64,000 nt of DNA, taken from an uncultured Gammaproteobacteria bacterium. Its GTDB lineage: Bacteria; Patescibacteriota; Microgenomatia; Daviesbacterales; UBA10151. The notes beneath the pieces are model-generated. The model saw only the letters and a list, made by a program, of their open reading frames with translations, did no database searches and was not told where the DNA came from. Position 1 is the first letter of the stretch, and each line of letters opens with the position of its first letter. Location of the stretch: contig CAZJNI010000002.1 in the NCBI GenBank assembly GCA_964547465.1, positions 6,043-70,042 of the forward strand, read 5' to 3'. The translations under genes and the position numbers were made by a program. Below are positions 22,088 to 61,048 of this stretch, one piece after another.

Positions 22088-23233
22088 ATGTTGATCAAAC
22101 CTGATGTTCAGAGATTTGCCAAGATTAAAGTCGTAGGACTTGGTGGCGGTGGTTCTAATTCTATAAGCTCCATGATTGCTCTTCAGCAAATTCAAGGGGT
22201 GGAATTTGTGGCTATAAATACCGATGCGCAAGCTTTAATGAATAATCAATCCCCCACCAAAGTACAAATTGGTGAAAGTTTAACTAAGGGTTTAGGTTCT
22301 GGTGGAGATCCGGAAATTGGCAAACAGGCAGCTGAAGAATCGACCCAAAAGTTAGAAGATGTATTGCAAGATGCTGATATGGTCTTCCTGACAGCCGGAA
22401 TGGGTGGAGGAACTGGAACAGGCTCAATTCCAATAGTTGCACAAATTGCCAAAAACGTGGGAGCTTTGACAGTAGCAGTTGTAACAAAGCCATTTTCTTT
22501 TGAAGGAACAAAAAGGATGGTGGTGGCAGAAGAAGGACTGGAGAAACTTAAGGATAAGGTTGATGCATTAATTATTATCCCCAACCAAAGGTTGCTTGAA
22601 ACCGTTGACAAAAATATCACTTTGCAGGACGCATTTAGGTTGGCAGATTCTGTCTTGGGCCAAGGGGTTCAAGGTATTTCTGATTTGATTACCATGCCAG
22701 GACTTATTAATGTTGATTTTGCAGATGTTAAAACAATCATGTCTAATGCCGGTTCTGCTTTAATGGGAATTGGTGTGGCAGGCGGGGAAAACAGGGCTGC
22801 TGCAGCAGCCAGAATGGCTATTGCCTCGCCCCTCTTGGAGGTTTCAATTGAGGGTGCCAAAGGGGTTTTGTTTAATATTGTAGGAGGATCAGATCTATCC
22901 ATGGCAGAGGTTAATGAGGCGGCACAAATTATTGCTCAAGCCGCAGATCCTGATGCTAATATTATTTTTGGTGCAACTATAAAAGAGGATCAATTGGATC
23001 AGGTTAAACTTTCTGTGATTGCCACAGGATTTGATGAAACAAGAAGAAGGCTCCGGGAATATATAGGTAGTGGAATTGGTTCATCATCCCTGCAAAATAC
23101 AGCAACACCATGGCAGGAAGAGGCTGAAGAAACTCCCGCTTCTCAAACAGTTTCTGAAGCAGAAGTGGCAGAAGAAGAGACCAAAGAGGAAGACGACTTA
23201 GAAATACCTGCTTTCTTACGTAGTAACCGCTAG
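22088..23233 (+). CDS. ftsZ: Cell division GTPase FtsZ
   Basis: Tubulin signature GGGTGTG. IKVVGLGGGGSN. Acidic C-terminal tail with DDLEIPAFLR. Confidence 0.9.
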   Translation: MLIKPDVQRFAKIKVVGLGGGGSNSISSMIALQQIQGVEFVAINTDAQALMNNQSPTKVQIGESLTKGLGSGGDPEIGKQAAEESTQKLEDVLQDADMVFLTAGMGGGTGTGSIPIVAQIAKNVGALTVAVVTKPFSFEGTKRMVVAEEGLEKLKDKVDALIIIPNQRLLETVDKNITLQDAFRLADSVLGQGVQGISDLITMPGLINVDFADVKTIMSNAGSALMGIGVAGGENRAAAAARMAIASPLLEVSIEGAKGVLFNIVGGSDLSMAEVNEAAQIIAQAADPDANIIFGATIKEDQLDQVKLSVIATGFDETRRRLREYIGSGIGSSSLQNTATPWQEEAEETPASQTVSEAEVAEEETKEEDDLEIPAFLRSNR

Positions 23234-23268
23234 AGTTAAGTCCAAAATTCTGTTAAAATTCTTTCATT

Positions 23269-26190
23269 ATGGCTAAATTGAAGAACTCGCTTCGCGAGAC
23301 CTTGCGACCCTTTCAGGGTCTAAAAAGCGTTTCTTCGCAAGTTGATTTTCCAGCTCTGGAGAGGGAACTCCTAGACTATTGGTACAAAGAGGGAATTATT
23401 GAGAAATATCTAAAAAAGAACCAGGAGGCTGAAGAAAAATTTTCTTTTCTGGATGGGCCGATTACTGCCAATAATCCAATGGGGGTTCATCATGCCTGGG
23501 GAAGAACTTATAAGGATCTTTGGCAAAGATTTTTTAACATGAAGGGTTATGCGCAGAGGTTTCAGAATGGATTTGATGAGCAAGGACTCTGGGTAGAAGT
23601 TGAAGTAGAAAAAGAACTAGGACTACATAGTAAAAAAGATATCGAAAATTTAATACCAGGAGATAAATTTAAAAGTTTGGAAAAATTTATTAATCTTTGT
23701 AAAGAGAGGGTAAAGAAATTTTCTGAAATTCAAACTGACCAAAGTAAAAGACTAGGCTATTTTATGGATTGGGATAATTCTTACCATACTTCCTCTGATG
23801 AAAACAATTTCGCAATCTGGAATTTCTTAAAAGTTGTTAATGATAAAGGCTGGCTTTATAAAGGGCATGATAGTGTTCCATGGTGTCCAAGATGCGGAAC
23901 AGCAATTTCCCAGCATGAAATTTTGACAGAGGATTATAAAGAAATTGATCATGAATCAGTATATTTCAAGTTACCCATTAGAGATAGAAAAAATGAATAC
24001 TTAGTTGTTTGGACAACTACTCCATGGACTATACCAGCCAATGTTGCTGTGGCCGTGGATCCAAAAATAAAGTATGTAAAAATAGAGGAAAATGGTGAAA
24101 TTTATTACCTAGCTGAATCAAGACTGGGCATTATAGGAAAGGGTGTAGTCATCAGTAATGCTGTATCAGCTAAAGATTTAGTGGGACTTGAATATGAAGC
24201 TCCATTTGATCATCTGCCTAGAGTTTCAGAAGCTTTGGGCGAATATATCCATAGGGTGGTAGAAACTGATGACTTAATTTTACCCATTACAACTGAAGAG
24301 GGAACTGGATTAGTCCATGTAGCTCCAGGTGCCGGGTCAGAAGATTTTAAATTGGGAAAAAAATTAGGTCTTCCAGTAATTGAGCTCATTGATGAGGAAG
24401 CAAATTATATGGACAAAATGGAGGATTTCTCTAATCAGAATGCTAAAAAACATCCGGAATTAATAATAGATTTTCTAAACAAAAAAGATGGCGGGAAATT
24501 TTTGTTTAAGACTGAAAGAATAAAACATAGATATCCAAATTGCTGGAGATGTAAATCCGAACTTGTTTGGAGAGTTGTTGATGAGTGGTACATAGCAATG
24601 GATCGTGATGACGAATCAGGAAAAACTTATCGGGAACAAATGGTGGAAGTTGTTAAAAACATAAACTGGATACCGAAGTGGGGATTAGAGCGAGAATTAG
24701 ATTGGCTTAAAAACATGCATGATTGGTTAATTTCCAAAAAAAGATATTGGGGTTTAAGCTTACCGGTTTGGGAATGTAGTAAATGTGGTAATTTTGAAGT
24801 AATTGGTAGTAAAGAGGAGCTTAAAGAAAGAGCTGTTGAAGGTTGGGATAAGTTTGAGGGACATTCTCCGCATAGGCCCTGGATTGATCAAGTCAGGATT
24901 AAATGCTCAAATTGTTCAGAAATAATTTCAAGGATTCCAGATGTGGGGAATCCCTGGCTTGATGCTGGAATCGTACCATTCTCTACCTTGCCAGAAGACT
25001 TTTTTCCAGCAGATTTTATAACAGAAAGCTTTCCGGGTCAGTTTAAAAATTGGTTTTATTCACTTATAGCTATGAGTACAGCTTTAAAAAGAGAAGCTCC
25101 ATTTAAAAACATTTTAGGTTTTGCTTCTTTACTTGATGAAAAAGGTGAACCAATGCATAAGTCTAGGGGTAATGCCATTGAGTTTAATGAAGCAGCAGAT
25201 AAAATCGGTGCAGATGTAATGAGATGGATGTACGTTACTCAAAACCCAGAATTCAATTTACTTTTTGGATATACTCCGGCTGCTGAAGTTAAGAGAAGGT
25301 TTTATCTTATTCTATGGAATAGTTATAAGTTTTTCATAGATTATGCACTTTTGAATAAGTGGGATTGCAAAGAAGAGATTGATAATCTGACAGTTTTAGA
25401 TAAATGGGTATTAGCACGCCTTACAGAAGTTGTTTTAGCGGTTAATAAGAATTTGGAGAATTTTGATGCTGCCTCATCTACCAGGGCAATTGAGGATTTT
25501 GTAGTGAATGACTTTTCAACCTGGTACATCAGACGATCAAGGGATAGAGTCGGACTTGATGTTGATAAATCCGATCGCAGCGCAGCTTTATCAGTTATGT
25601 ACGGAGTGTTAGTCACGTTATCAAAACTTTTAGCTCCCTTTATTCCGTTTATAACTGAAGAGATGTATCAAAATTTAACTGGTGATATATCTGTACACTT
25701 AAGTGATTATCCACTGGGGGACAAAACTCTACTTGATGAAAAATTAATTGAGCAAATGAAAATAGTCAGAAAAATAGCAGAAGCAGCACATGCTAAAAGA
25801 AAAGAAGCAGGAATTAAGCTCAGACAACCCTTAGCTAGTTTAACTTATAAATCCTTAGTTCAGTTAAGGCAAGATTTAGAAAAGATTTTATCAGAGGAGC
25901 TTAATGTTAAGAAGATTGAATACCAAAAATCCTCAAAGACTGAGCCTGAAGTAGAGTTGGATACAAAAATTACTCCCGCTCTTAAAGAAGAAGGTGAGGC
26001 TAGAGATTTAATCAGGCAGGTTCAGCAACTTAGAAAGGAACAAAATCTAACTTTGGTAGATAAAACAAAAATAACTGCCCCAAGTTGGCCAAAAGATTTT
26101 GAGAAACAAATTCTTGTTGGGACAGCTTCTGTCTCTATTCAAAAAGGCAATGAGCTTTCTGTTATCAAAGTAGAAGATGTTAAATCTTAA
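23269..26190 (+). CDS. ileS: Isoleucine--tRNA ligase with divergent signature motifs
   Basis: [25 protein letters not shown] matches IleS [35 protein letters not shown] matches DWCISRQRYWG.PIP. KMSKS-like PMHKS. HIGH region is atypical (GVHHAWG). Confidence 0.8.
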   Translation: [973 protein letters not shown]

Positions 26191-27241
26191 GCTTATTAAT
26201 TGGCAAATCACCCTGGCAAGTTTTTTACTTGTTTGTATTGGAATTTTAATTATTTTTTCATCATCCAGGGAACTTGCCATACAGCAGATAATCTTTAGCA
26301 TTTTAGGACTTACTTTTTTCCTGATAGTTTCACAGCTTGATTTTCATGCTTTAGTGAGCTTCATAAAGCCTGCTTATTTTTTAATAATTTTTTTACTTAT
26401 TGCAGTTTTAATCTTGGGAGTAGAAACCAGGGGAACTTTGAGATGGATACCTTTAGGGATTTTCAATATTCAACCATCCGAGTTTGCAAAACCAATATTA
26501 ATTTTATTTTTAGCAAGATTCTGGTCAAATAATATTCCCTCCTGGAGAAATATTTTTAAATGCTTGCTTTGGGTTTTACCTATTTTTATTCTAATATTTA
26601 AGCAACCAGACTTGGGTTCTGCCTTAACTATTGCAGCAATCTGGTTAGGTATGTTATTTGCAGCAAAAGTTTCCCTTAAAAAAATAATTGTTATTATATT
26701 AATTAGCGCATTTATTCTTCCCTTAGGTTGGCATCTTTTGCATGATTATCAAAGACAAAGGATTATCAGCTTTTTAGCTCCTCAAAGCGACCCATTAGGT
26801 AGGGGATATAATTTAATTCAATCAACCATTGCTGTTGGATCAGGACAGTTTTTAGGAAGAGGTTTAGGAAGAGGGACTCAATCCAGGCTTCAATTTTTGC
26901 CTGAATTTAGAACTGATTTTATTTTTGCCTCAATTGCGGAGGAGATGGGACTTTTAGGTTCAGCTGTTATTTTGAGTTTATATCTTTTTATAATTGTTTA
27001 TAGTTTATTTCTTGCCAATAAAATTTCGGATCCGGCAAATTTACTCCTAATTGTTGGGGTTGTATCAATGCTTCTTTTCCAGACTTTTGTTAATATTGGA
27101 ATGAATATGGGTCTTTTACCAATTACAGGTATTACTCTGCCTTTGATTTCTTATGGCGGCAGTTCTTTAATAGCTACTTTTATATGTTTGGGACTTATCT
27201 CATCAGCCTGGAAATTTGGGAAAAGAATTGACCACGATTAG
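26177..27241 (+). CDS. rodA: SEDS-family protein, RodA-like (second SEDS copy)
   Basis: Multi-TM protein with a SEDS C-terminal region (LLPITGITLPLISYGGSSL). Confidence 0.7.
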   Translation: MLNLKLINWQITLASFLLVCIGILIIFSSSRELAIQQIIFSILGLTFFLIVSQLDFHALVSFIKPAYFLIIFLLIAVLILGVETRGTLRWIPLGIFNIQPSEFAKPILILFLARFWSNNIPSWRNIFKCLLWVLPIFILIFKQPDLGSALTIAAIWLGMLFAAKVSLKKIIVIILISAFILPLGWHLLHDYQRQRIISFLAPQSDPLGRGYNLIQSTIAVGSGQFLGRGLGRGTQSRLQFLPEFRTDFIFASIAEEMGLLGSAVILSLYLFIIVYSLFLANKISDPANLLLIVGVVSMLLFQTFVNIGMNMGLLPITGITLPLISYGGSSLIATFICLGLISSAWKFGKRIDHD

Positions 27242-27262
27242 TTTACATGTTAAAATCTCTCC

Positions 27263-27568
27263 ATGTTAAATTATGCAATCTGTGAAATAAACGGTAAACA
27301 ATATAAGATTTTCCCTAATATTCCTTTGTTGATTGATTATCAAGGCGAAAAAAATAAGGATATAGAGGCTAATGTTTTGCTAATGGAGGATGGTAAGCTG
27401 CATTTGGGAAAGCCGTATCTTAAGGAAAAATTAAATTTAAAATTTGTTGAGAATACTCAAGGAGAGAAAGTCAGAGTATCTAAATTTCATGCCAAGGCAA
27501 ATTATAGAAAAATAACAGGTAAAAGAGCAAAATTTACCAAAGTTGTTCTGAATGTGAAAAGGGCTTGA
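27263..27568 (+). CDS. rplU: 50S ribosomal protein L21
   Basis: MLNYAICEINGKQYKI... Confidence 0.85.
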   Translation: MLNYAICEINGKQYKIFPNIPLLIDYQGEKNKDIEANVLLMEDGKLHLGKPYLKEKLNLKFVENTQGEKVRVSKFHAKANYRKITGKRAKFTKVVLNVKRA

Positions 27569-27592
27569 TACGTTCATGAGACTGAACGTATC
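27567..27592. repeat. Hairpin element GATACGTTCA-tgagac-TGAACGTATC in the L21-L27 spacer
   Basis: Perfect 10-bp inverted repeat seen directly. Related to elements at 43331 and 56724. Confidence 0.6.
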
Positions 27593-27638
27593 TTGACAAT
27601 AGTTTTCACGGAGTGTATCTTACAATTGTCTTAATGTT

Positions 27639-27884
27639 ATGGCGCATAAAGCAGGTGGTGGAAGTACCAGAAAAAATAGAGATTCGATATCAAAGCGTTT
27701 AGGCGTTAAAATTTATGGTGGAGCAAAAGTAATTTCAGGCAACATTATTGTCCGTCAAAAAGGAAATAAATTTTATCCGGGAGTTGGGACAAAGCAGGGT
27801 AATGACTACACAATATTCGCAGTGACGAGTGGAAAAATAGAATTTAAGAAAAAGTTGGGAAAAAGTTTAATTAATGTTGTTTAA
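27639..27884 (+). CDS. rpmA: 50S ribosomal protein L27
   Basis: [16 protein letters not shown]... Confidence 0.9.
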
Positions 27885-27890
27885 ATAAAA

Positions 27891-28736
27891 ATGGATGAAT
27901 CTATCTATGAGTTGGAAATAGACCTGCTGCAGCCAAATCCCCTGCAGCCAAGAGGATTGATCACACCGGAATCTTTATCTGAACTGGCAGAATCTATCAG
28001 GGCGCATGGAATTTTAGAGCCTATTGTGGTTGCTAAAACTCCTGCCGGTTATCAAATTATTGCAGGGGAGCGAAGATGGAGAGCTTCCAAAGTTGTGGGT
28101 ATTCCTAAGGTTCCGGTGATAATCCGGGAAACCACTCCGCAGGGTATGCTGGAGATGGCTATTGTAGAAAATGTTCAAAGGATAGATTTAAATCCGCTGG
28201 AGAGGGCCCAAGCTTACAAAAGATTAATGGATGAATTTACGCTAACTAATGCAGAAATTTCAGAAAGAGTTTCAAAAAGTCCATCCTATATTTCCAACAC
28301 AATAAGACTGCTGACCCTGCCTGATGCGCTTAAGGATGCCTTAATGTCCGGGGCCACCACAGAAGGTCATGCCAGAGCTTTAGCAGCCCTGGAGGATCCA
28401 CACCTTATTATAGAGGCTTATAAAGAAGTATTAAAAAGAAATCTATCTGTCAGGGGTACAGAGGATTTGGTTAGAAGGTTTAGGGCAAAGGAAGGAATCG
28501 GGCCTAAGAGGGCAGCTACTATTGAGACAATGCATATACTTTCAGAAGAATTGGATCGGGTGCAAAATGATTTAAGTTCTGCCTTGTCTAAAAAAGTAGA
28601 TAGGGCAGAAGTAAAGTGTTCACAAACCGGTCAAAAGGCAAAAGTGGAGTTATTATTGGAAGGAAATCCGGAAAAAACTACACCTGCCTTGGAAGATATA
28701 AGAGCGGCAATAGTTGGTTATTTTAATCTTTCGTAG
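27891..28736 (+). CDS. parB: ParB/Spo0J-family partition protein
   Basis: ParB box GILEPIVVAKTPAGYQIIAGERRWRAS. Confidence 0.85.
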   Translation: MDESIYELEIDLLQPNPLQPRGLITPESLSELAESIRAHGILEPIVVAKTPAGYQIIAGERRWRASKVVGIPKVPVIIRETTPQGMLEMAIVENVQRIDLNPLERAQAYKRLMDEFTLTNAEISERVSKSPSYISNTIRLLTLPDALKDALMSGATTEGHARALAALEDPHLIIEAYKEVLKRNLSVRGTEDLVRRFRAKEGIGPKRAATIETMHILSEELDRVQNDLSSALSKKVDRAEVKCSQTGQKAKVELLLEGNPEKTTPALEDIRAAIVGYFNLS

Positions 28737-28742
28737 AACTGA

Positions 28743-29336
28743 TTATTTGTTAGTTAAAAGTCCAACGCTCGGAGGTGGCCAGTATCTAAAAAAAGCTCTT
28801 CCCACAATCTCTTCTTTGGTTACCGCTCCCCATTCTCTTGAATCAGATGAGTGTTCTCTATTATCCCCAAAAACAAAATATTGATTAGGCCCGGCTTTAA
28901 CTGTTGAACCTTCCAGAAGAAATGACCCTCCATTTGTATGGATCCCTGCAGGTAAAAATGGTTGAGAGATTATCTCATCATTTACAGAAACCGTGTTATC
29001 TGCCACTTTTATTGTATCCCCGGGGACTGCCATTATTCTTTTGATAAAATCTTGAGATTCATCCCTGGGGTTTTTTAAAACAATGATGTCTCCCTTCTTC
29101 GGTGAACCAAATCTATAACTTATTTTTTCGGTAATAATATAATCCCCATTTTGCAGGGTCGGGATCATGGAGCTTCCGGAAACTTTATGAAATTGGGCAA
29201 TAAATAAATAAATAATGAAAAAAATTGCGACACAAACAACAACAGTCTCAATAATTTCTATAAAATAGCCGCCTAATTTATTAAAAAAGCCTTTTTCTTC
29301 CCCATACCCATAACTTGTATAACCTTCAGGATCCAT
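28743..29336 (-). CDS. lepB: Signal peptidase I (S26)
   Basis: SGSSMIPTL catalytic Ser box. N-terminal TM. Confidence 0.85.
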   Translation of the reverse strand: MDPEGYTSYGYGEEKGFFNKLGGYFIEIIETVVVCVAIFFIIYLFIAQFHKVSGSSMIPTLQNGDYIITEKISYRFGSPKKGDIIVLKNPRDESQDFIKRIMAVPGDTIKVADNTVSVNDEIISQPFLPAGIHTNGGSFLLEGSTVKAGPNQYFVFGDNREHSSDSREWGAVTKEEIVGRAFFRYWPPPSVGLLTNK

Positions 29337-29401
29337 TCTTAAGATTATCGCAAAATTTCAGGTTGTGATGCAAGTACTACGGTGCTAAAATGACTTCTAA
29401 T

Positions 29402-29487
29402 GGAGTCATAGCTCAGTTGGTTTACCCGTTCAAATTTTTGCAGAGCAAAAACTTGCGCGGGTAAAGAGCGCCGCATTCATCCGCGCG
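29402..29487 (+). pseudogene. Degenerate tRNA-Val-like 5' fragment (acceptor 5' arm plus D-arm) with a ~43-nt hairpin inserted in the D-loop; not a functional tRNA
   Basis: GGAGTCATAGCTCAGTTGGTT matches the start of tRNA-Val at 29778 (GGACAAGTAGCTCAGTTGGTT). An inserted imperfect hairpin at 29422-29464 is followed by a non-pairing anticodon-arm-like stretch. No 3' acceptor complement. Confidence 0.35.
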
Positions 29488-29523
29488 AATCTTAACAGAT
29501 TCGATCGGATTCACATATAAAAT

Positions 29524-29787
29524 ATGTATTATGTATACGTTCTTAGGAGCTTAAAGGATGGAAAGTTATATTCTGGGTATACATCCAATTTGAAGCAAAG
29601 ATTGGAATACCATAATAATGGTAAGGTAGAATCTACTAAATGGAGAAAACCTTTTGAGTTGATCTATTTTGAAGGGTATAATCATCATCAAGATGCAACT
29701 GCAAGAGAAAAGTTCTTTAAGACGCAATGGGGTAGGAATTATATAAGGAGGGTGTTAAAGAATTATTGGAAAGAAATGGACAAGTAG
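29524..29787 (+). CDS. Small GIY-YIG nuclease-domain protein (YhbQ/UPF0213-like); stop codon overlaps the first 10 nt of tRNA-Val
   Basis: YVYVLRS..DGKLYSGYTSNLKQRLEYHNNG is a GIY-YIG motif. 87 aa. Confidence 0.75.
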   Translation: MYYVYVLRSLKDGKLYSGYTSNLKQRLEYHNNGKVESTKWRKPFELIYFEGYNHHQDATAREKFFKTQWGRNYIRRVLKNYWKEMDK

Positions 29788-29851
29788 CTCAGTTGGTTAG
29801 AGCGTCGCATTCACATTGCGAAGGCCACAGGTCCGAGTCCTGTCTTGTCCA
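29778..29851 (+). tRNA. tRNA-Val (anticodon CAC)
   Basis: Manual fold: acceptor GGACAAG/CTTGTCC, D-arm GCTC..GAGC, anticodon stem TCGCA/TGCGA with loop TTCACAT, T-arm ACAGG-TCCGAGT-CCTGT. No encoded CCA. Confidence 0.8.
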
Positions 29852-29852
29852 C

Positions 29853-31502
29853 TTACAGGGATTTTGTTCGATTATTGTAGTATTCAGCAACTTTTTCATC
29901 AGTTGTGTACCATCTTCCTAAAAACCAAACAGCATCCAGTCTACCTCCATGTGCATGCGGGACAAGTGATTTATCAAAACTTGCAACCCTTTTGATTCCT
30001 GCTGGATAAATAATTTTATTCTCAATAGCTTTTCTAGCGATTGATAAAGCACCTGTAATACTATCTTCAGATTTGTCTAACCCCTTTTCTATATCAGTAC
30101 TTTTTTTGCCCTGCAGCTTTAAATTAACAATTTCTAATATGTAGGGAGACAAATTTACCTCTCTGATTTTCAGCCATTCATTAAATTGTCTTAGAAAAAT
30201 ATCAACTGCCAACTCAAAGTTATCTGGTTGAGGTAAATGACGTCTTTTTTTCCGAGGTAGCCTATGATCAGAAATGGCTTTAGCAGTCTTAAAAAACCAA
30301 TTCCGAAAATTCTCATGAGAATCATTTTCTGGCATATTCTCTAACTCAACTGCAGAAAAAAGTTCAATCTGTCTTTGTGATATTGAATTGATTACTTCAA
30401 TAGGTCTAATATTATTTTGTGACGCTGTGTAAGTAGTTAAAAATTCTTTCGCATCTTCTGGTTTAATAAACCACCAGCTACCTTTTTTAACTCCTGGTAA
30501 ATATCCGCTTGCTAGTGCCTCTGTTAATCTATTTTTCACAGCAGGAGTAGCTGGAAAATCACTTACTTGTTGATATTCTTTTCCGGGAGATTTTATTCTT
30601 CTTTTCGCTCTAATTCTTTTACTTCTAAATTCATTCAACCCTTCTTGGGTGATATAGATCCTTCCTTGAGTTCGGGTTAAAAGATGTTTATATCTAAATC
30701 CTAATAGGGTTCCATACTCATCTGACGTTGTTTGTTCAGCAAGAGGTAAAAATCCTTGTTCCAGCATTGATGTACTTAGTGTAACTCTTTTATAATGATA
30801 TCTTTGCACCCATTCATCCGTTGTATACCAGCGTCCTAGAAATTTTACTGCTTCTAAACCACCTCTGCTAGCTGCTGTTGCTAGGGAGCCATCTTGATAA
30901 TCAGCTAGTAGTCTAAATCCAGCTGGATAGAATAGATTTCCTTCAATTTTGTCTCTTGCCCTATACATTAAATTAAGTACTGCCCGTTGGGTAGATCCTA
31001 ACTCGTCTATAATTTCAGATATTCCTTTACCCGCTGTTCTTAGTTCTACAGCTTTTAATTGGGCGGGGGTTAGTAATTCGGTAAGTCTATCTTTAAACCT
31101 TGGCATCAAATCTATGAAAGTAGTCTCTGTTCTCTCTTTTGGTTGCCTAACAAAAGTATCCTCAAAAGATACACCACGTGTCCTGATAATTCTCCTTAAC
31201 TCCATATTTATATTTGCTCTAGCTATAGTAAATGTCCACTTGATAAATGTCTTTGTTGGATCCTTACCTTTCAGATCAAACTCAAAAGACGGAAGAGCAG
31301 CATACATTTCTGAAAGAGTATCTTGGGTAAGGTCTTCAGCTTCGTTTGGAAGACGACGTACTAAATATCTAAATAATTCTGGTCTTAAAAAACCATCTAA
31401 TTCAGCAAAAGCCCGCTCATCTCCAGCTTTTATTCTCTTAACCACCAATGGTATATCAATTGAAGGTTTTGGTGTCCCTCTGCCTTCTGCTTCTAAAGTC
31501 AT
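29853..31502 (-). CDS. ECF-type sigma-70 family factor (regions 2 and 4) fused to a ~350-aa extension. The extension carries a second region-4-like HTH, and each HTH is followed by a repeated YPAG[FI]..GG.L.AV.FLGRWYTTDE module
   Basis: Region 2: AGDERAFAEL..LFRYLVRRLPNEAEDLTQDT..WTFTIARAN. Region 4: LTPAQLKAVELRTAGKGISEIIDELGSTQRAVLNLMYRARDKI. Internal duplication seen directly in the translation. Confidence 0.6.
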   Translation of the reverse strand: MTLEAEGRGTPKPSIDIPLVVKRIKAGDERAFAELDGFLRPELFRYLVRRLPNEAEDLTQDTLSEMYAALPSFEFDLKGKDPTKTFIKWTFTIARANINMELRRIIRTRGVSFEDTFVRQPKERTETTFIDLMPRFKDRLTELLTPAQLKAVELRTAGKGISEIIDELGSTQRAVLNLMYRARDKIEGNLFYPAGFRLLADYQDGSLATAASRGGLEAVKFLGRWYTTDEWVQRYHYKRVTLSTSMLEQGFLPLAEQTTSDEYGTLLGFRYKHLLTRTQGRIYITQEGLNEFRSKRIRAKRRIKSPGKEYQQVSDFPATPAVKNRLTEALASGYLPGVKKGSWWFIKPEDAKEFLTTYTASQNNIRPIEVINSISQRQIELFSAVELENMPENDSHENFRNWFFKTAKAISDHRLPRKKRRHLPQPDNFELAVDIFLRQFNEWLKIREVNLSPYILEIVNLKLQGKKSTDIEKGLDKSEDSITGALSIARKAIENKIIYPAGIKRVASFDKSLVPHAHGGRLDAVWFLGRWYTTDEKVAEYYNNRTKSL

Positions 31503-31518
31503 GAGATCATTATATAAA

Positions 31519-31641
31519 ATGCCTATTTATAGTCAAATTAATTACATAAATCATTACGGTAAACCTCAAGATATAGAGTGGGCAATTGATGATCAGGGGA
31601 AAATTTGGATTCTTCAGTCAAGGCCAATAACTACGCTTTAA
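31519..31641 (+). pseudogene. Relic of a PEP-utilizing enzyme ATP-grasp (PPDK_N-type) gene: only the domain's C-terminal signature survives
   Basis: GKPQDIEWAIDDQGKIWILQSRPITTL matches the conserved DIEWA...G.LYILQ.RPIT end of the PPDK_N domain. Compare YEWMVDGGVKLIGIKPYTP in the 59525 ORF. The upstream part of the ORF is antisense to the sigma-like gene. Confidence 0.45.
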
Positions 31642-31696: not shown

Positions 31697-32524
31697 TTAT
31701 TTCAATTTCTTTATTGATGCACTTCCAACAAGCGATTGCATTTGTGTAATAGCAACCTCATTTAGTTGTATTAAACGCTTACTTTGGGATAGACCAAGCC
31801 GGATAAGTTCGGCATTTATACCTTCCAAATTTGCCAATACCACCAATTGAGTTACATCTGCCCAGTCGCGGATATTGCCGTTTTTATTATGATTTTCATC
31901 TCGCCACTCCTTAGCTGTTTTTCCAAACAGCGCCATGTTGAGTACGTCTGCTTCACTGGCATAGATTACATTGGTTGATTGCTTTGATAGTTGGGGAGGG
32001 ATCAAGTACGCTTTAACCGCATCAGTTTGAATCTTGTAGTTAATTTTTGCCAAAGTCCGTTTTATATCCCAACCCAAGGCTAAGCGTTGATTTTCTTCCT
32101 CTTTTAATCGTTGAAACTCTTTAATGAGAAACAGCTTGAATTCAGCGCTAATCCAACTAGCAAACTCAAAAGCAATATCTTTATGAGCGAAAGTGCCGCC
32201 GCCATATCTACCTGATTTAGAAGTCATACCTGTCGCAGCAGTAGAATCTATCCATTTTTGGGGAGAAAGGACAAATGAATTGCTTCCTGATTCATTTTTA
32301 AACCCGTCGAATTCGACCAGTTTAAAATTTGGGTTGTTTATCTTCTCCCATAAACCAAGAAATTCAATAGTACTATGGGTTCTCATCCAATTTTTTACAA
32401 CATCTGCAGGCGCATCTTTGTTTTTCAGCTTGGCAATATCAGTGAGAGAAATGAAGTCTCCCTGATCCTTTTTTAGTATATAGATCTGTATGCCCTTGGT
32501 AATTATCTTTTTCATTTTAGGCAT
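31697..32524 (-). CDS. KilA-N domain protein (phage/mobile-element-associated DNA-binding family)
   Basis: N-terminal YILKKDQGDFISLTDIAK...THSTIEFLGLWE. Central GGGTFAHKDIAFEFASWISAEFKLFLIKEFQRLKEEE is typical of KilA-N/DinD-like proteins. Confidence 0.6.
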   Translation of the reverse strand: MPKMKKIITKGIQIYILKKDQGDFISLTDIAKLKNKDAPADVVKNWMRTHSTIEFLGLWEKINNPNFKLVEFDGFKNESGSNSFVLSPQKWIDSTAATGMTSKSGRYGGGTFAHKDIAFEFASWISAEFKLFLIKEFQRLKEEENQRLALGWDIKRTLAKINYKIQTDAVKAYLIPPQLSKQSTNVIYASEADVLNMALFGKTAKEWRDENHNKNGNIRDWADVTQLVVLANLEGINAELIRLGLSQSKRLIQLNEVAITQMQSLVGSASIKKLK

Positions 32525-32664: not shown

Positions 32665-34185
32665 ATGTATAAAATTTCAAAAAATATCCTTTATAATTTT
32701 TCGGGGCAAGTAACTCTACTAATTTTAACTATAGTTACAGCTCCCTTTATTATAAATTCCCTGGGTCATGATAAATATGGTATTTTTACTTTGGCTATTA
32801 CAGTTGTGGGTTATTTTTCTATTTTGGACTTAGGATTAGGTACCTCAATCATTAAATTTATATCAGATTCCCATTCAAGGCAGGATAAAGAGTCTTTAGA
32901 AAAAATTATCAACACCTCTTTAACTTCTTATACGGTAATTGGATTTTTGGGGGCAGTTTTGATTATATTATCTACTCAATTTATTGTAAGAGGGGCTCTG
33001 CATATTCCTTTAACCTTAATTCCCTTGGCCTTATCGGTTTTCTATATTAGTTCATTAGGTTTTTTTGTAAATATGATTTTGACAGTTTTTAATAGCATAC
33101 CTATTGCTTTAGAACGGATGGATATTACAAATAGCAGAAATATTATCTTTGGTCTTTTAAATACTTTAGGTATTGTTATACTTTTGATCCTTGGTCAGGA
33201 TCTTCTGACAGTAATTATATGGAGTATTTTAGTTTCAGTAGTCGCAACAGTAAGTTTTCTAAAGATAATTTTTGACCTTTTACCAAATATTAAGATAAAG
33301 TTTGGTTTTGATAAAGAAATATTTGTTAGGTTAATAAAATTTGGACTGTTTAAATCTATAGTTAATATAAGCGGTCAAATTGTTTTTCAGTTAGACAGAC
33401 TACTAATTGGTATTTTCCTTCCTATTGCATCTGTTACCTTTTATACTGTCCCTGCTATTTTGGCCCAAAGAGGTTTTTCAATACTCTTTAATGTTACAAG
33501 CGCTTTCTTTCCGGCTATTAGCTTCTCTCAAGCTAAGGATGATAAACAAAGAGTAAAAGATTTATATCTCCGTATGACAAAAATAATCATTTTGCTGATC
33601 TCCCCCCTTATGGCAATTATTTTTCTCCTTGCAGAAGATATTTTAGAGATTTGGTTAGGGTCTCAGTTTGCGTACCAAAGTACCTCAACCCTAAAAATAT
33701 TAACATTAGCTTATTTTCTAGCAGCTTTTTCTGCTCCGGGAGTAATTGTTTCAGATGCATCTAACAAACCTCAAATTCCAGCTATTTTTTCGATATTTAG
33801 TGCTGCGATAAACTTGATAGCAGCATTAATTTTAATACCGGTATTAGGCATAGAAGGTGCCGCTTGGGCACTCGTTATAAATTTTGCGGTTCAAGTTCCT
33901 GTATTTTTAATGATTGTTCATAAAAAAGTTCTAGGGATATCTCATCTTACTGTTATTGCTCAGTCAATAATAAAACCATTATTATCCGGGATTACTACAG
34001 CAGTAATTTTATATACCGCACTTAACTTCATTGATAGTCCAATCCAGCGTTTAGTAGCTATACCTATTCTTTTTGGTTTATTGTATATAGTTATAAACTA
34101 TCTTATTGGTACATTTGATGAGAGAGATAAGTTAATGGTTTTATTTTTTATAAACAGGTTTAAATTAATATTTCAAAGAAAATAA
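32665..34185 (+). CDS. Oligosaccharide flippase (Wzx/MOP superfamily, polysaccharide biosynthesis protein)
   Basis: About 14 predicted TM helices over 506 aa. Sits in a glycan-synthesis neighbourhood. Confidence 0.65.
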   Translation: MYKISKNILYNFSGQVTLLILTIVTAPFIINSLGHDKYGIFTLAITVVGYFSILDLGLGTSIIKFISDSHSRQDKESLEKIINTSLTSYTVIGFLGAVLIILSTQFIVRGALHIPLTLIPLALSVFYISSLGFFVNMILTVFNSIPIALERMDITNSRNIIFGLLNTLGIVILLILGQDLLTVIIWSILVSVVATVSFLKIIFDLLPNIKIKFGFDKEIFVRLIKFGLFKSIVNISGQIVFQLDRLLIGIFLPIASVTFYTVPAILAQRGFSILFNVTSAFFPAISFSQAKDDKQRVKDLYLRMTKIIILLISPLMAIIFLLAEDILEIWLGSQFAYQSTSTLKILTLAYFLAAFSAPGVIVSDASNKPQIPAIFSIFSAAINLIAALILIPVLGIEGAAWALVINFAVQVPVFLMIVHKKVLGISHLTVIAQSIIKPLLSGITTAVILYTALNFIDSPIQRLVAIPILFGLLYIVINYLIGTFDERDKLMVLFFINRFKLIFQRK

Positions 34186-59524: not shown

Positions 59525-61048
59525 ATGATCGAAATACTGCCTATAAGATTACTGATTCCGGAAGACAGCCAAATTTTTGGTAAAATGGCTGTTTCTTTGG
59601 GGAAACTTCACAGAGCTGGATTGGCTGTGGCTTCTGGTGTGGTGGTGACTCCCCCGCTTTTAAAGCTGAAAACTGTTTTGGAACATTATGATTTTAAATC
59701 TAAAGAAGTTTTTGAACAGTCCTTAACTTTAGTAAAAAAAGAGATCAAGTCAATTCCTATACCTGATCTTTTAACTCGCGAGCTAGGCAAACATCACCAT
59801 TTTTTAGTTAATGAAAAGATTTTCAAATCTGTTAAGGAAGTTTGGATTGCTCTTTTAGATACCTGGTTGGAAGAAATTAAAGACAGACTTTGGAAAGAAG
59901 GGTTTCAGCAGGGGATGACTGAAAACCTGGAACCCCAGATTATTATTTTTATAAAAAAGATGGAAAGTTTAGGTTTAGCATATTTTGATAATCTGGCAGA
60001 TGACACAGTGATAAATGTTAAAGAAGGTAAGCTACATCCAAATGATTTAAAAAAATTGGATGAGTTGGTTAGGGAAGCGAATAAAAAATTATTTATCCCC
60101 CACCAGTATGAGTGGATGGTAGATGGAGGAGTAAAGTTGATTGGGATAAAGCCTTATACTCCAAGTCCGGATATGTCTACCTATCCCATACCAAACGTGG
60201 ACTCATCGCCCAAGGGCATGGGTAAAGAAATATATAAAGAGCTTTTGCCAAACGAAGCGAGAAGTACTATTAAAGTCTTCTTAGATTTATCATCAGGGTT
60301 AGTAGTAGAAAGAGAGGTTGACGGGGTTTATATTGCTTCTGAAAAAATATTTGATTTAAATAAAACTCAAGATTCTTTTGAAAATTTGGTTTTTAAAATT
60401 GTGGAAGCTGCCATAACTTTTCCAGACTCTCCGGTTTTGGTAAAGCTGGCAGATAAATCTGAAGGAATGGGTAAGGTAAGAGGAACTTTGCGGCTTTTGC
60501 ATCAGAAAAATTTATTTGATCCAATTGTCGATGCTCTGGATTTTGCCAGACACAAAAAAGCTCTGACCAATGTTCACATTGTGGTGCCATTTATCAGAGG
60601 AGTAAATGAGTTACTTCAGATCAAACGCGAGCTGGCAGTGAAAAAGTTATCAAGAAAAAATTCTTTGCAGCTTTGGATGGAAGTTTGCACCCCGGAAAAT
60701 ATAATAAATCTGGAAGATTATTTAATGGTAGGACTGGATGGGGTAGTCCTAAACTTAGATGAGCTAGTGTCTTTCTTAAATGGTTTTGACAATAGTGAAG
60801 GGGAATTAATTGCTTATAAAAATGAACTAAGTGGTTTATTAAAATTTTTGGAGGATGGATTAAAGTTGCTTCATAAATCCAAGATTCCTTTTATAGCCTA
60901 CGGAAGTTTAAGTTTATATCCACAGGTTCTGGAATTTTTAGTGGAAAAGGGAGTTTATGGAGTGGTGGTAGAGCGCTATGAAGCTCCTTCTGCAAAAGAG
61001 TTCTTACATCAGGTAGAGAGAAGATTAATTTTACGAAGAGTATCCTAG
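59525..61048 (+). CDS. Protein with an N-terminal PPDK_N-like ATP-grasp (PEP-utilizer N-domain) and no obvious phosphohistidine domain
   Basis: FGKMAVSLGKLHRAGLAVASGVVVTP start and YEWMVDGGVKLIGIKPYTP end-motif of the PPDK_N type. The remaining ~290 aa are unassigned. Confidence 0.4.
   Translation: MIEILPIRLLIPEDSQIFGKMAVSLGKLHRAGLAVASGVVVTPPLLKLKTVLEHYDFKSKEVFEQSLTLVKKEIKSIPIPDLLTRELGKHHHFLVNEKIFKSVKEVWIALLDTWLEEIKDRLWKEGFQQGMTENLEPQIIIFIKKMESLGLAYFDNLADDTVINVKEGKLHPNDLKKLDELVREANKKLFIPHQYEWMVDGGVKLIGIKPYTPSPDMSTYPIPNVDSSPKGMGKEIYKELLPNEARSTIKVFLDLSSGLVVEREVDGVYIASEKIFDLNKTQDSFENLVFKIVEAAITFPDSPVLVKLADKSEGMGKVRGTLRLLHQKNLFDPIVDALDFARHKKALTNVHIVVPFIRGVNELLQIKRELAVKKLSRKNSLQLWMEVCTPENIINLEDYLMVGLDGVVLNLDELVSFLNGFDNSEGELIAYKNELSGLLKFLEDGLKLLHKSKIPFIAYGSLSLYPQVLEFLVEKGVYGVVVERYEAPSAKEFLHQVERRLILRRVS

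Follow-up and report, generated by a model that had tools for sequence, protein, structure and literature searches.

The short open reading frame (ORF) at positions 31519-31641 of the window, as the whole stretch of 64,000 nucleotides analysed here is called, is very probably the 3' end of an otherwise lost gene, a young and non-functional remnant of a known kind and not a new small protein. The ORF is homologous over 30 codons to the end of a stand-alone PPDK_N-type ATP-grasp gene, the intact gene stands at the orthologous locus of a relative, both junctions of the rearranged segment were found, and further relatives present the same gene at independent stages of decay. The lesion would have arisen either by an insertion together with a deletion or by a single replacement, is likely to be recent, and has presumably left a stub that is not expressed.

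Extent of the homology

The ORF lies on the forward strand, starts with ATG and comprises 40 codons followed by TAA, encoding MPIYSQINYINHYGKPQDIEWAIDDQGKIWILQSRPITTL. A Pfam-A search assigns it to PPDK_N (PF01326) at 44.1 bits (E=2.1e-11), far above chance given the gathering cut-off of 27 for this family. The initial annotation had read the end of the ORF as the conserved terminus of PPDK_N, as the match bears out, and its doubt that the similarity might fall below significance can be set aside. The match spans ORF residues 11-39 and only positions 282-311 of the 328 positions of the profile. The remainder of a complete domain (N-terminal GGKGxxLG nucleotide-binding segment and central ATP-grasp sheets, ~330 positions in all) is absent from the ORF, and since nine-tenths of the domain are missing, the fragment is not a functional PPDK_N domain.

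The limits of the remnant are set by comparison with its relatives. Residues 248-277 of P0015, a PPDK_N protein of 277 aa, align to 31549-31638 (80% identity, E=7e-13, tblastn), and no second piece matching P0015 was found anywhere in the 64-kb window. Both DNA and protein similarity to four related loci (L089, L001, L002, L083) begin at ~31546-31549, indicating that the ATG of the ORF and the nine codons after it are not derived from PPDK_N, and the DNA similarity extends past the stop codon, in L001 by ~19 nt. The homology proposed by the initial annotation for the last 27 codons thus stands, but covers 30 codons, preceded by 10 that are unrelated. Compared with L089, the remnant is 89.9% identical over 89 nt (blastn), with 28 of 30 residues and 79 of 90 bases identical (88% nucleotide identity), and compared with L001 it is 82% identical (blastn). 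A continuation of the homology upstream to 31489 was considered and rejected, as it adds four identities at the price of a 4-residue gap in AT-rich DNA and is indistinguishable from chance.

The same motif had also been said to close the N-domain of the protein encoded at 59525-61048. The string YEWMVDGGVKLIGIKPYTP is indeed present there, but it has no statistical support: no PPDK_N was found in this protein, whose sole Pfam match is PEP-utilizers_C, and the PPDK_N family profile aligns with its N-terminal 37 residues only, at 50% probability (hhalign). The gene is on the forward strand and encodes 507 aa, with PEP-utilizers_C at the C-terminus and an N-terminus faintly resembling the GGKGxxLG start of PPDK_N. 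A PEP-utilizing enzyme that has diverged strongly or degenerated, without a recognisable swivel domain, is one possible identity.

Table 1. Features around the remnant in the window, followed by related loci that carry the PPDK_N gene or pieces of it
Feature	Position	Strand	Description
ParB (+) and LepB (-) genes	27891..29336		Synteny anchors marking L089 as the orthologous locus
tRNA-Val(CAC)	29778..29852	+	Left landmark of the rearranged segment; ARAGORN, Rfam, alignment with L089 and L001
Sigma-fusion gene	29853..31502	-	549 aa, 1.65 kb; ECF-type sigma regions 2 and 4, two C-terminal repeats (Pfam)
Sigma-70-type promoter	31509..31536	-	TTGACT-16-TATAAT, 11/12 matches (promoter scan)
Head of the 40-codon ORF	31519..31548	+	MPIYSQINYI; without PPDK_N homology; ATG appears fortuitous
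True remnant	31549..31641	+	Last 30 codons, NHYGKPQDIEWAIDDQGKIWILQSRPITTL, and original TAA of a stand-alone PPDK_N-type ATP-grasp gene
KilA-N domain gene	31697..32524	-	Pfam KilA-N, E=2e-19; phage-like, between remnant and Polysacc_synt
Polysacc_synt gene	32665..34185	+	Wzx/MurJ-like flippase (Pfam)
L083			Full PPDK_N gene with one frameshift; cassette of 75-aa and Asp-protease-like genes between PPDK_N and PEP-utilizers gene
L102			Half of tRNA-Val, internally deleted HD gene, 92-aa in-frame chimera, minus-strand gene, Polysacc_synt
L001			tRNA-Val(CAC), 76-aa gene (-), Asp-protease-family gene (-), 61-codon remnant, Polysacc_synt
L002			Last ~112 parent positions with 21-residue internal deletion, 91 residues left
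L099			42-codon remnant in frame with TspO-like gene (fusion)

The orthologous locus and the replaced segment

The metagenome contig L089 (Ga0180007_10008388) is collinear with positions 23183-29312 of the window over ~6 kb (tblastx, blastn). The shared genes include RodA/FtsW, L21, L27, ParB and the divergent LepB, followed by tRNA-Val(CAC); ParB is 81% identical over the best tblastx segment and 76% over the full protein, LepB 60% at the amino acid level. Downstream of the tRNA, L089 carries a module of three genes encoding an HD-domain protein (190 aa), a PEP-utilizers protein (424 aa) that ends in the PEP-utilizers swivel domain (Pfam, E=9e-25), and a PPDK_N protein (247 aa; Pfam, E=4e-76). 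The comparison with relatives suggested by the initial annotation therefore yields an intact PPDK_N gene at the orthologous locus. It is not the large PEP-utilizer paralog that had been expected; the parent is a stand-alone ATP-grasp protein of 247-277 aa.

In the window, similarity to L089 after tRNA-Val resumes only at the last 30 codons of the PPDK_N gene. The loss (~2.5 kb in L089) begins at the first base past the tRNA discriminator and ends near codon 217 of the PPDK_N gene, and what has been gained is ~1.69 kb consisting almost wholly of the sigma-fusion ORF and its promoter. The sigma-fusion gene, which is absent at the syntenic locus in L089, stands in place of the HD and PEP-utilizers genes together with the 5' 90% of the PPDK_N coding sequence, and lenient searches with the three module proteins returned nothing credible between 29300 and 32700 in any frame. 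A PEP-utilizers fragment at 29434-29529 (-) was discarded as a chance match (E=0.084 over the whole window) that overlaps a tRNA-like repeat region. At the left junction the stop codon of the sigma-fusion gene abuts tRNA-Val, starting at the very next base, and the encoded CCA seen in the L089 and L001 copies of the tRNA is missing (29850-29856). The flanks are occupied as previously described, by the sigma-fusion gene on one side and the KilA-N gene on the other (Table 1), and the idea of a gene remnant left by insertion or deletion holds, with the lesion refined to a replacement of ~2.5 kb by ~1.7 kb.

This arrangement does not derive from a chimeric assembly of the window, since the Logan contig L085 (run SRR12113383), which was assembled independently and spans both junctions, is 100% identical to 29827-31599. 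L085 ends within tRNA-Val and, at 31599, within the remnant, and position 31599 is one of two nucleotides private to the window's copy; the same sample may hold another closely similar PPDK_N 3' end, from a strain variant or from another organism.

Several features indicate that the incoming gene is mobile. Homologues of the sigma-fusion protein amount to five cluster representatives among 5.8 billion, with 47-53% identity, and their contexts are all different: that in L100 adjoins a type I restriction-modification system and that in L101 a glycosyltransferase cluster. The unrelated contexts suggest that the gene moves from one to another. Its internal repeats (around FLGRWYTTDE) are 58% identical over 36 aa. 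The minus-strand promoter of the gene overlaps the first 10 codons of the 40-codon ORF, and 6 nt separate the end of its -10 box from the start codon, so that the sigma-fusion mRNA is probably leaderless. Such spacing is typical in the window, where the end of a TATAAT-like box precedes the start codon by 4-11 nt (mode 6-7) in 19 of 57 genes, compared with a background of 7%, which suggests mostly leaderless mRNAs. Upstream of the sigma-fusion homologues nothing but the -10 box is shared, so homology does not define the boundary of the cassette.

Taken together, an ancestor would have carried the HD gene, the PEP-utilizers gene (~424 aa) and the PPDK_N gene (247-277 aa) directly downstream of tRNA-Val(CAC). 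The stretch between the tRNA discriminator and about codon 217 of the ATP-grasp gene, which measures ~2.5 kb in the relative, would then have been replaced by a 1.69-kb segment with the minus-strand sigma-fusion gene and its own promoter. Thirty codons would have survived together with their stop and a short piece of 3' flank, and a chance in-frame ATG in the incoming sequence would have extended them to an ORF of 40 codons.

Further signs of insertion surround the segment. Over 98% of its length, the KilA-N protein shares 57% identity with ORF014 of Staphylococcus phage EW and with Streptococcus satellite-phage proteins; this similarity to phages is unusually high, and little else in the window resembles sequences of cultured bacteria. 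In this clade the Polysacc_synt gene is repeatedly found downstream of the PPDK_N gene or its remnant (window, L001, L102), and in L001 the remnant lies ~100 nt from it with no intervening gene, from which the KilA-N gene of the window is recognised as a second, phage-like insertion. Exact look-ups of the KilA-N protein and of the 40-aa ORF returned no contigs. On the other side, an 87-aa GIY-YIG gene is located between LepB and tRNA-Val, its end overlapping the intact tRNA, and just upstream of it is a degenerate partial copy of tRNA-Val corresponding to the 5' half (29524-29787 and 29399-29516, respectively). Three segments of this copy share 83-93% identity with 29775-29816, a palindrome with 21-nt arms at 29421-29465 interrupts it, and neither ARAGORN nor Rfam called it. 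Since LepB and tRNA-Val are ~30 nt apart in L089, the GIY-YIG gene and the pseudo-tRNA look like an insertion as well.

Such surroundings raise the question whether the remnant is an att-type duplicate, i.e., whether an element integrated at the 3' end of a PPDK_N gene, with the ORF as the displaced or element-borne copy and the intact gene at the other end. The phage-like KilA-N gene and the floating sigma-fusion gene flanking the stub, the tRNA at the left border, and the ends of L085 within both tRNA-Val and the remnant would fit this explanation. However, the 64 kb searched out of the 118-kb contig hold no second PPDK_N copy (tblastn), no integrase was found among the genes examined around the remnant, and no direct repeats bracket the replaced segment. 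The remnant also stands exactly where the syntenic L089 has the intact gene, the truncation points vary between lineages, and the motif is unmatched in 2.9 million viral contigs. An att duplicate is thus highly improbable, and replacement in situ is preferred. With ordinary bacterial pseudogene remnants beside tRNA genes, the locus shares a truncated gene copy that is intact at a relative's orthologous locus, and borders formed by a tRNA and by horizontally mobile genes (KilA-N, GIY-YIG, floating sigma-fusion). Unlike these, it shows no detectable integrase, att repeats or compositional anomaly (the GC content reveals no island at the locus), and there is no point-mutational decay yet.

The parent gene and the lost module

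Exhaustive HMMER searches and a scan of metagenome contigs with a degenerate DNA pattern (DIEW-x6-KIWILQSRPITTL) show that the parents bearing the motif are stand-alone ATP-grasp proteins, mostly of 245-320 aa, which end exactly with QSRPITTL before the stop codon. Among 14 metagenome loci with KIWILQSRPITTL, 12 have a complete PPDK_N gene, including L094, a 700-aa C-terminal fusion; the other two are L088, which is cut by the contig end, and L099, a remnant. In at least 80 representative genomes the DIEW...QSRPITT motif, where located, is always inside a long protein (349 aa at the least), and none ends with TTL before the stop. Most of the representative-genome matches listed are 750-1100 aa long with 430-640 residues past the motif, and a few are ~350-450 aa long with ~30 residues past it; those listed are generic genes of the PEP-synthase/RPH type with 55-77% identity, and no close relative is among them.

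The parent looks like a short stand-alone ATP-grasp protein that ended at the motif and formed one part of a split dikinase. The order HD, PEP-utilizers, PPDK_N seen in L089 recurs in L087, L091, L092, L095, L096 and L098, and together with the domain architecture it makes the module look like a putative split two-component small-molecule dikinase. In the two-component dikinase HpeHI, HpeI is a stand-alone ATP-grasp protein, while HpeH contains the substrate-binding and swivel domains (PMC12167813); dikinases of this type are related to rifampin phosphotransferase and PEP synthase (PMC4844700). The module of the relatives is split in the same way, with the PEP-utilizers swivel protein encoded first and the PPDK_N ATP-grasp protein (247-277 aa) encoded separately after it, and a stand-alone ATP-grasp protein beside a separate swivel protein is present in L089, L087, L091, L092 and L095. 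It differs from HpeHI by an additional HD-domain gene, and its placement in the HpeHI subfamily is suggested by architecture. In the window, unlike in HpeHI, the partner gene is gone and 30 ATP-grasp codons are left, so that the locus does not encode a two-component system.

The nearest solved structures to P0015 are PEP synthase (8a8e_A, E=2e-65) and the Listeria rifampin phosphotransferase RPH-Lm (5hv6 and 5fbs, E ~1e-47), and the remnant corresponds to the last strands of their ATP-grasp domain. RPH-Lm and PEP synthase are single chains of 790-880 aa that continue for 430-640 residues past the motif, whereas the parent protein stops at it. In RPH-Lm, Glu297 coordinates Mg2+ (PMC4844700, Nat Commun 2016), and judging from the alignment offset, the Glu of the remnant's DIEW is probably equivalent to this residue. 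The stub retains the Mg-binding DIEW...QSRP motif, but with less than 11% of the ATP-grasp fold no kinase action is possible.

Decay in relatives and conservation of the stub

Five related loci carry the gene in other states of disrepair (Table 1). Homology to the parent starts at codon 248 in the window, 217 in L001, 166 in L002 and 236 in L099, with the window containing the shortest stub of the series, and in L102 the final ~35 residues of PPDK_N follow directly on residues 1-87 of the PEP-utilizers protein. No two breakpoints are the same, indicating independent lesions of one accessory module, and the common synteny of tRNA-Val, remnant and Polysacc_synt indicates that the pieces are in situ. 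The cassette of L083 (3358-4066) consists of genes for a 75-76-aa protein and a ~137-aa Asp-protease-like protein with a DTGA motif, and is located directly upstream of PPDK_N; a cassette of the same make-up lies next to the remnant of L001 (120-757) in inverted orientation. It may be a mobile, toxin-antitoxin-like pair.

The stub itself is strikingly undecayed. Compared with L001, it shows 12 synonymous and 2 non-synonymous differences (pS 0.65, dN/dS ~0.02), it keeps every residue that is invariant in the family, its only two window-private substitutions are both synonymous, and no frameshifts, stops or radical substitutions, as expected from neutral decay, were found in it. The dead HD and PEP-utilizers fragments of L102, however, are 61-65% identical to L089, compared with 61-73% for intact orthologues. 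As fragments that are plainly dead are equally well conserved, the state of the remnant is read as a sign of recent truncation.

Undecayed codons are also what would be expected if the C-terminal strand motif of PPDK_N had been kept as a translated peptide of 40-90 aa, for example one that modulates a dikinase or an ATP-grasp partner. Such a micro-protein would account for the short ORFs ending with QSRPITTL that recur in many metagenomes, and the ORF is open with an ATG start. All 13 protein matches of a word-index search are 42-92 aa long and end with QSRPITT (11 of them with TTL before the stop), and many short entries are among the top matches of the exhaustive HMMER search. The family of micro-proteins suggested by the word-index search proved to be a product of search bias, as exhaustive HMMER and the DNA scan show full-length proteins of 247-320 aa to be the norm, and the unbiased DNA-pattern scan yielded 12 complete genes against 1 remnant. 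The short ORFs of the relatives, moreover, have no common start, length or neighbour, and their breakpoints fall at 248, 217, 166 and 236, which disposes of the earlier doubt that the same short ORF might be conserved in relatives as a genuine micro-protein. Individually, P0003 is a frameshifted full gene, P0005 an in-frame deletion chimera, and P0007 stems from a contig with 0.35x coverage. Given that the dead fragments of L102 are as conserved as intact orthologues, conservation reflects youth and not function, and the synonymous sites of the remnant behave like those of intact genes. There is no predicted promoter on the forward strand, and the product is not called as a gene. A conserved micro-protein is therefore very unlikely.

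The promoter scan found neither a forward-strand promoter nor a TATAAT-like -10 box before the ATG. A Shine-Dalgarno sequence is also missing upstream of the ATG, which is uninformative, as only 5 of the 57 genes in the window have an SD-like motif. The 40-aa product is absent from a collection of 15 billion proteins that does contain five other proteins encoded on the same 118-kb NCBI contig.

Alternatively, the retained sequence could act at the level of DNA, as upstream regulatory region of the sigma-fusion promoter, as terminator between the KilA-N and sigma-fusion genes, or as a conserved anchor for recombination bordering a variable glycan locus. The remnant begins ~10 nt upstream of the -35 box of the sigma-fusion gene, the neighbouring Polysacc_synt is highly variable between relatives, and the nucleotide identity of 88% to L089 (79/90) exceeds the ~68% of flanking housekeeping DNA. 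Likewise, the fraction of identical codons relative to L089 is 0.69 in the remnant, compared with 0.42-0.57 in neighbouring genes. The variation of the remnant has third-codon-position periodicity, however, as is typical of protein constraint. In 11 intact genes, conservation at synonymous sites is only slightly raised over the last 30 codons (0.58, compared with 0.52 elsewhere in the gene), and the remnant is within this range; its synonymous-site similarity to intact genes is 0.55, and that among intact genes is 0.58. An extra constraint on the nucleotides was therefore rejected, the remnant being typical of the family-wide profile. Folds examined for a terminator or structured RNA in the 3' flank are no better than those of shuffled sequences (z -1.3, -1.2, +1.1 and -0.1), RNA structure is not significant on either strand (z -1.2 to -1.3), and the region contains neither a terminator pattern nor an Rfam family. 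A role at the DNA level is thus extremely unlikely.

A more general variant would be that the terminal 30-60 codons are preferentially kept after loss of the module, be it as translated peptide or as recombination or regulatory DNA anchor, and in the latter case the anchor would sit between the insertion hot spot at tRNA-Val and the hypervariable polysaccharide locus. Very little weight is given to this possibility; if it were true, the recurrent mini-ORFs ending with QSRPITTL would be a selected feature rather than debris.

Under the preferred reading of a young remnant, 31549-31641 should be annotated as a pseudogene fragment, neither as a protein nor as empty intergenic DNA, and the case cautions that strong amino acid conservation with a dN/dS of ~0.02 in a short ORF can simply reflect recent truncation. 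The lost putative dikinase module is widespread in groundwater metagenomes and may merit follow-up more than the remnant itself. The locus provides a clean natural series, from intact to frameshifted, internally deleted and replaced genes and finally a stub of 30 codons, which illustrates how small genomes shed an accessory module beside a tRNA gene.
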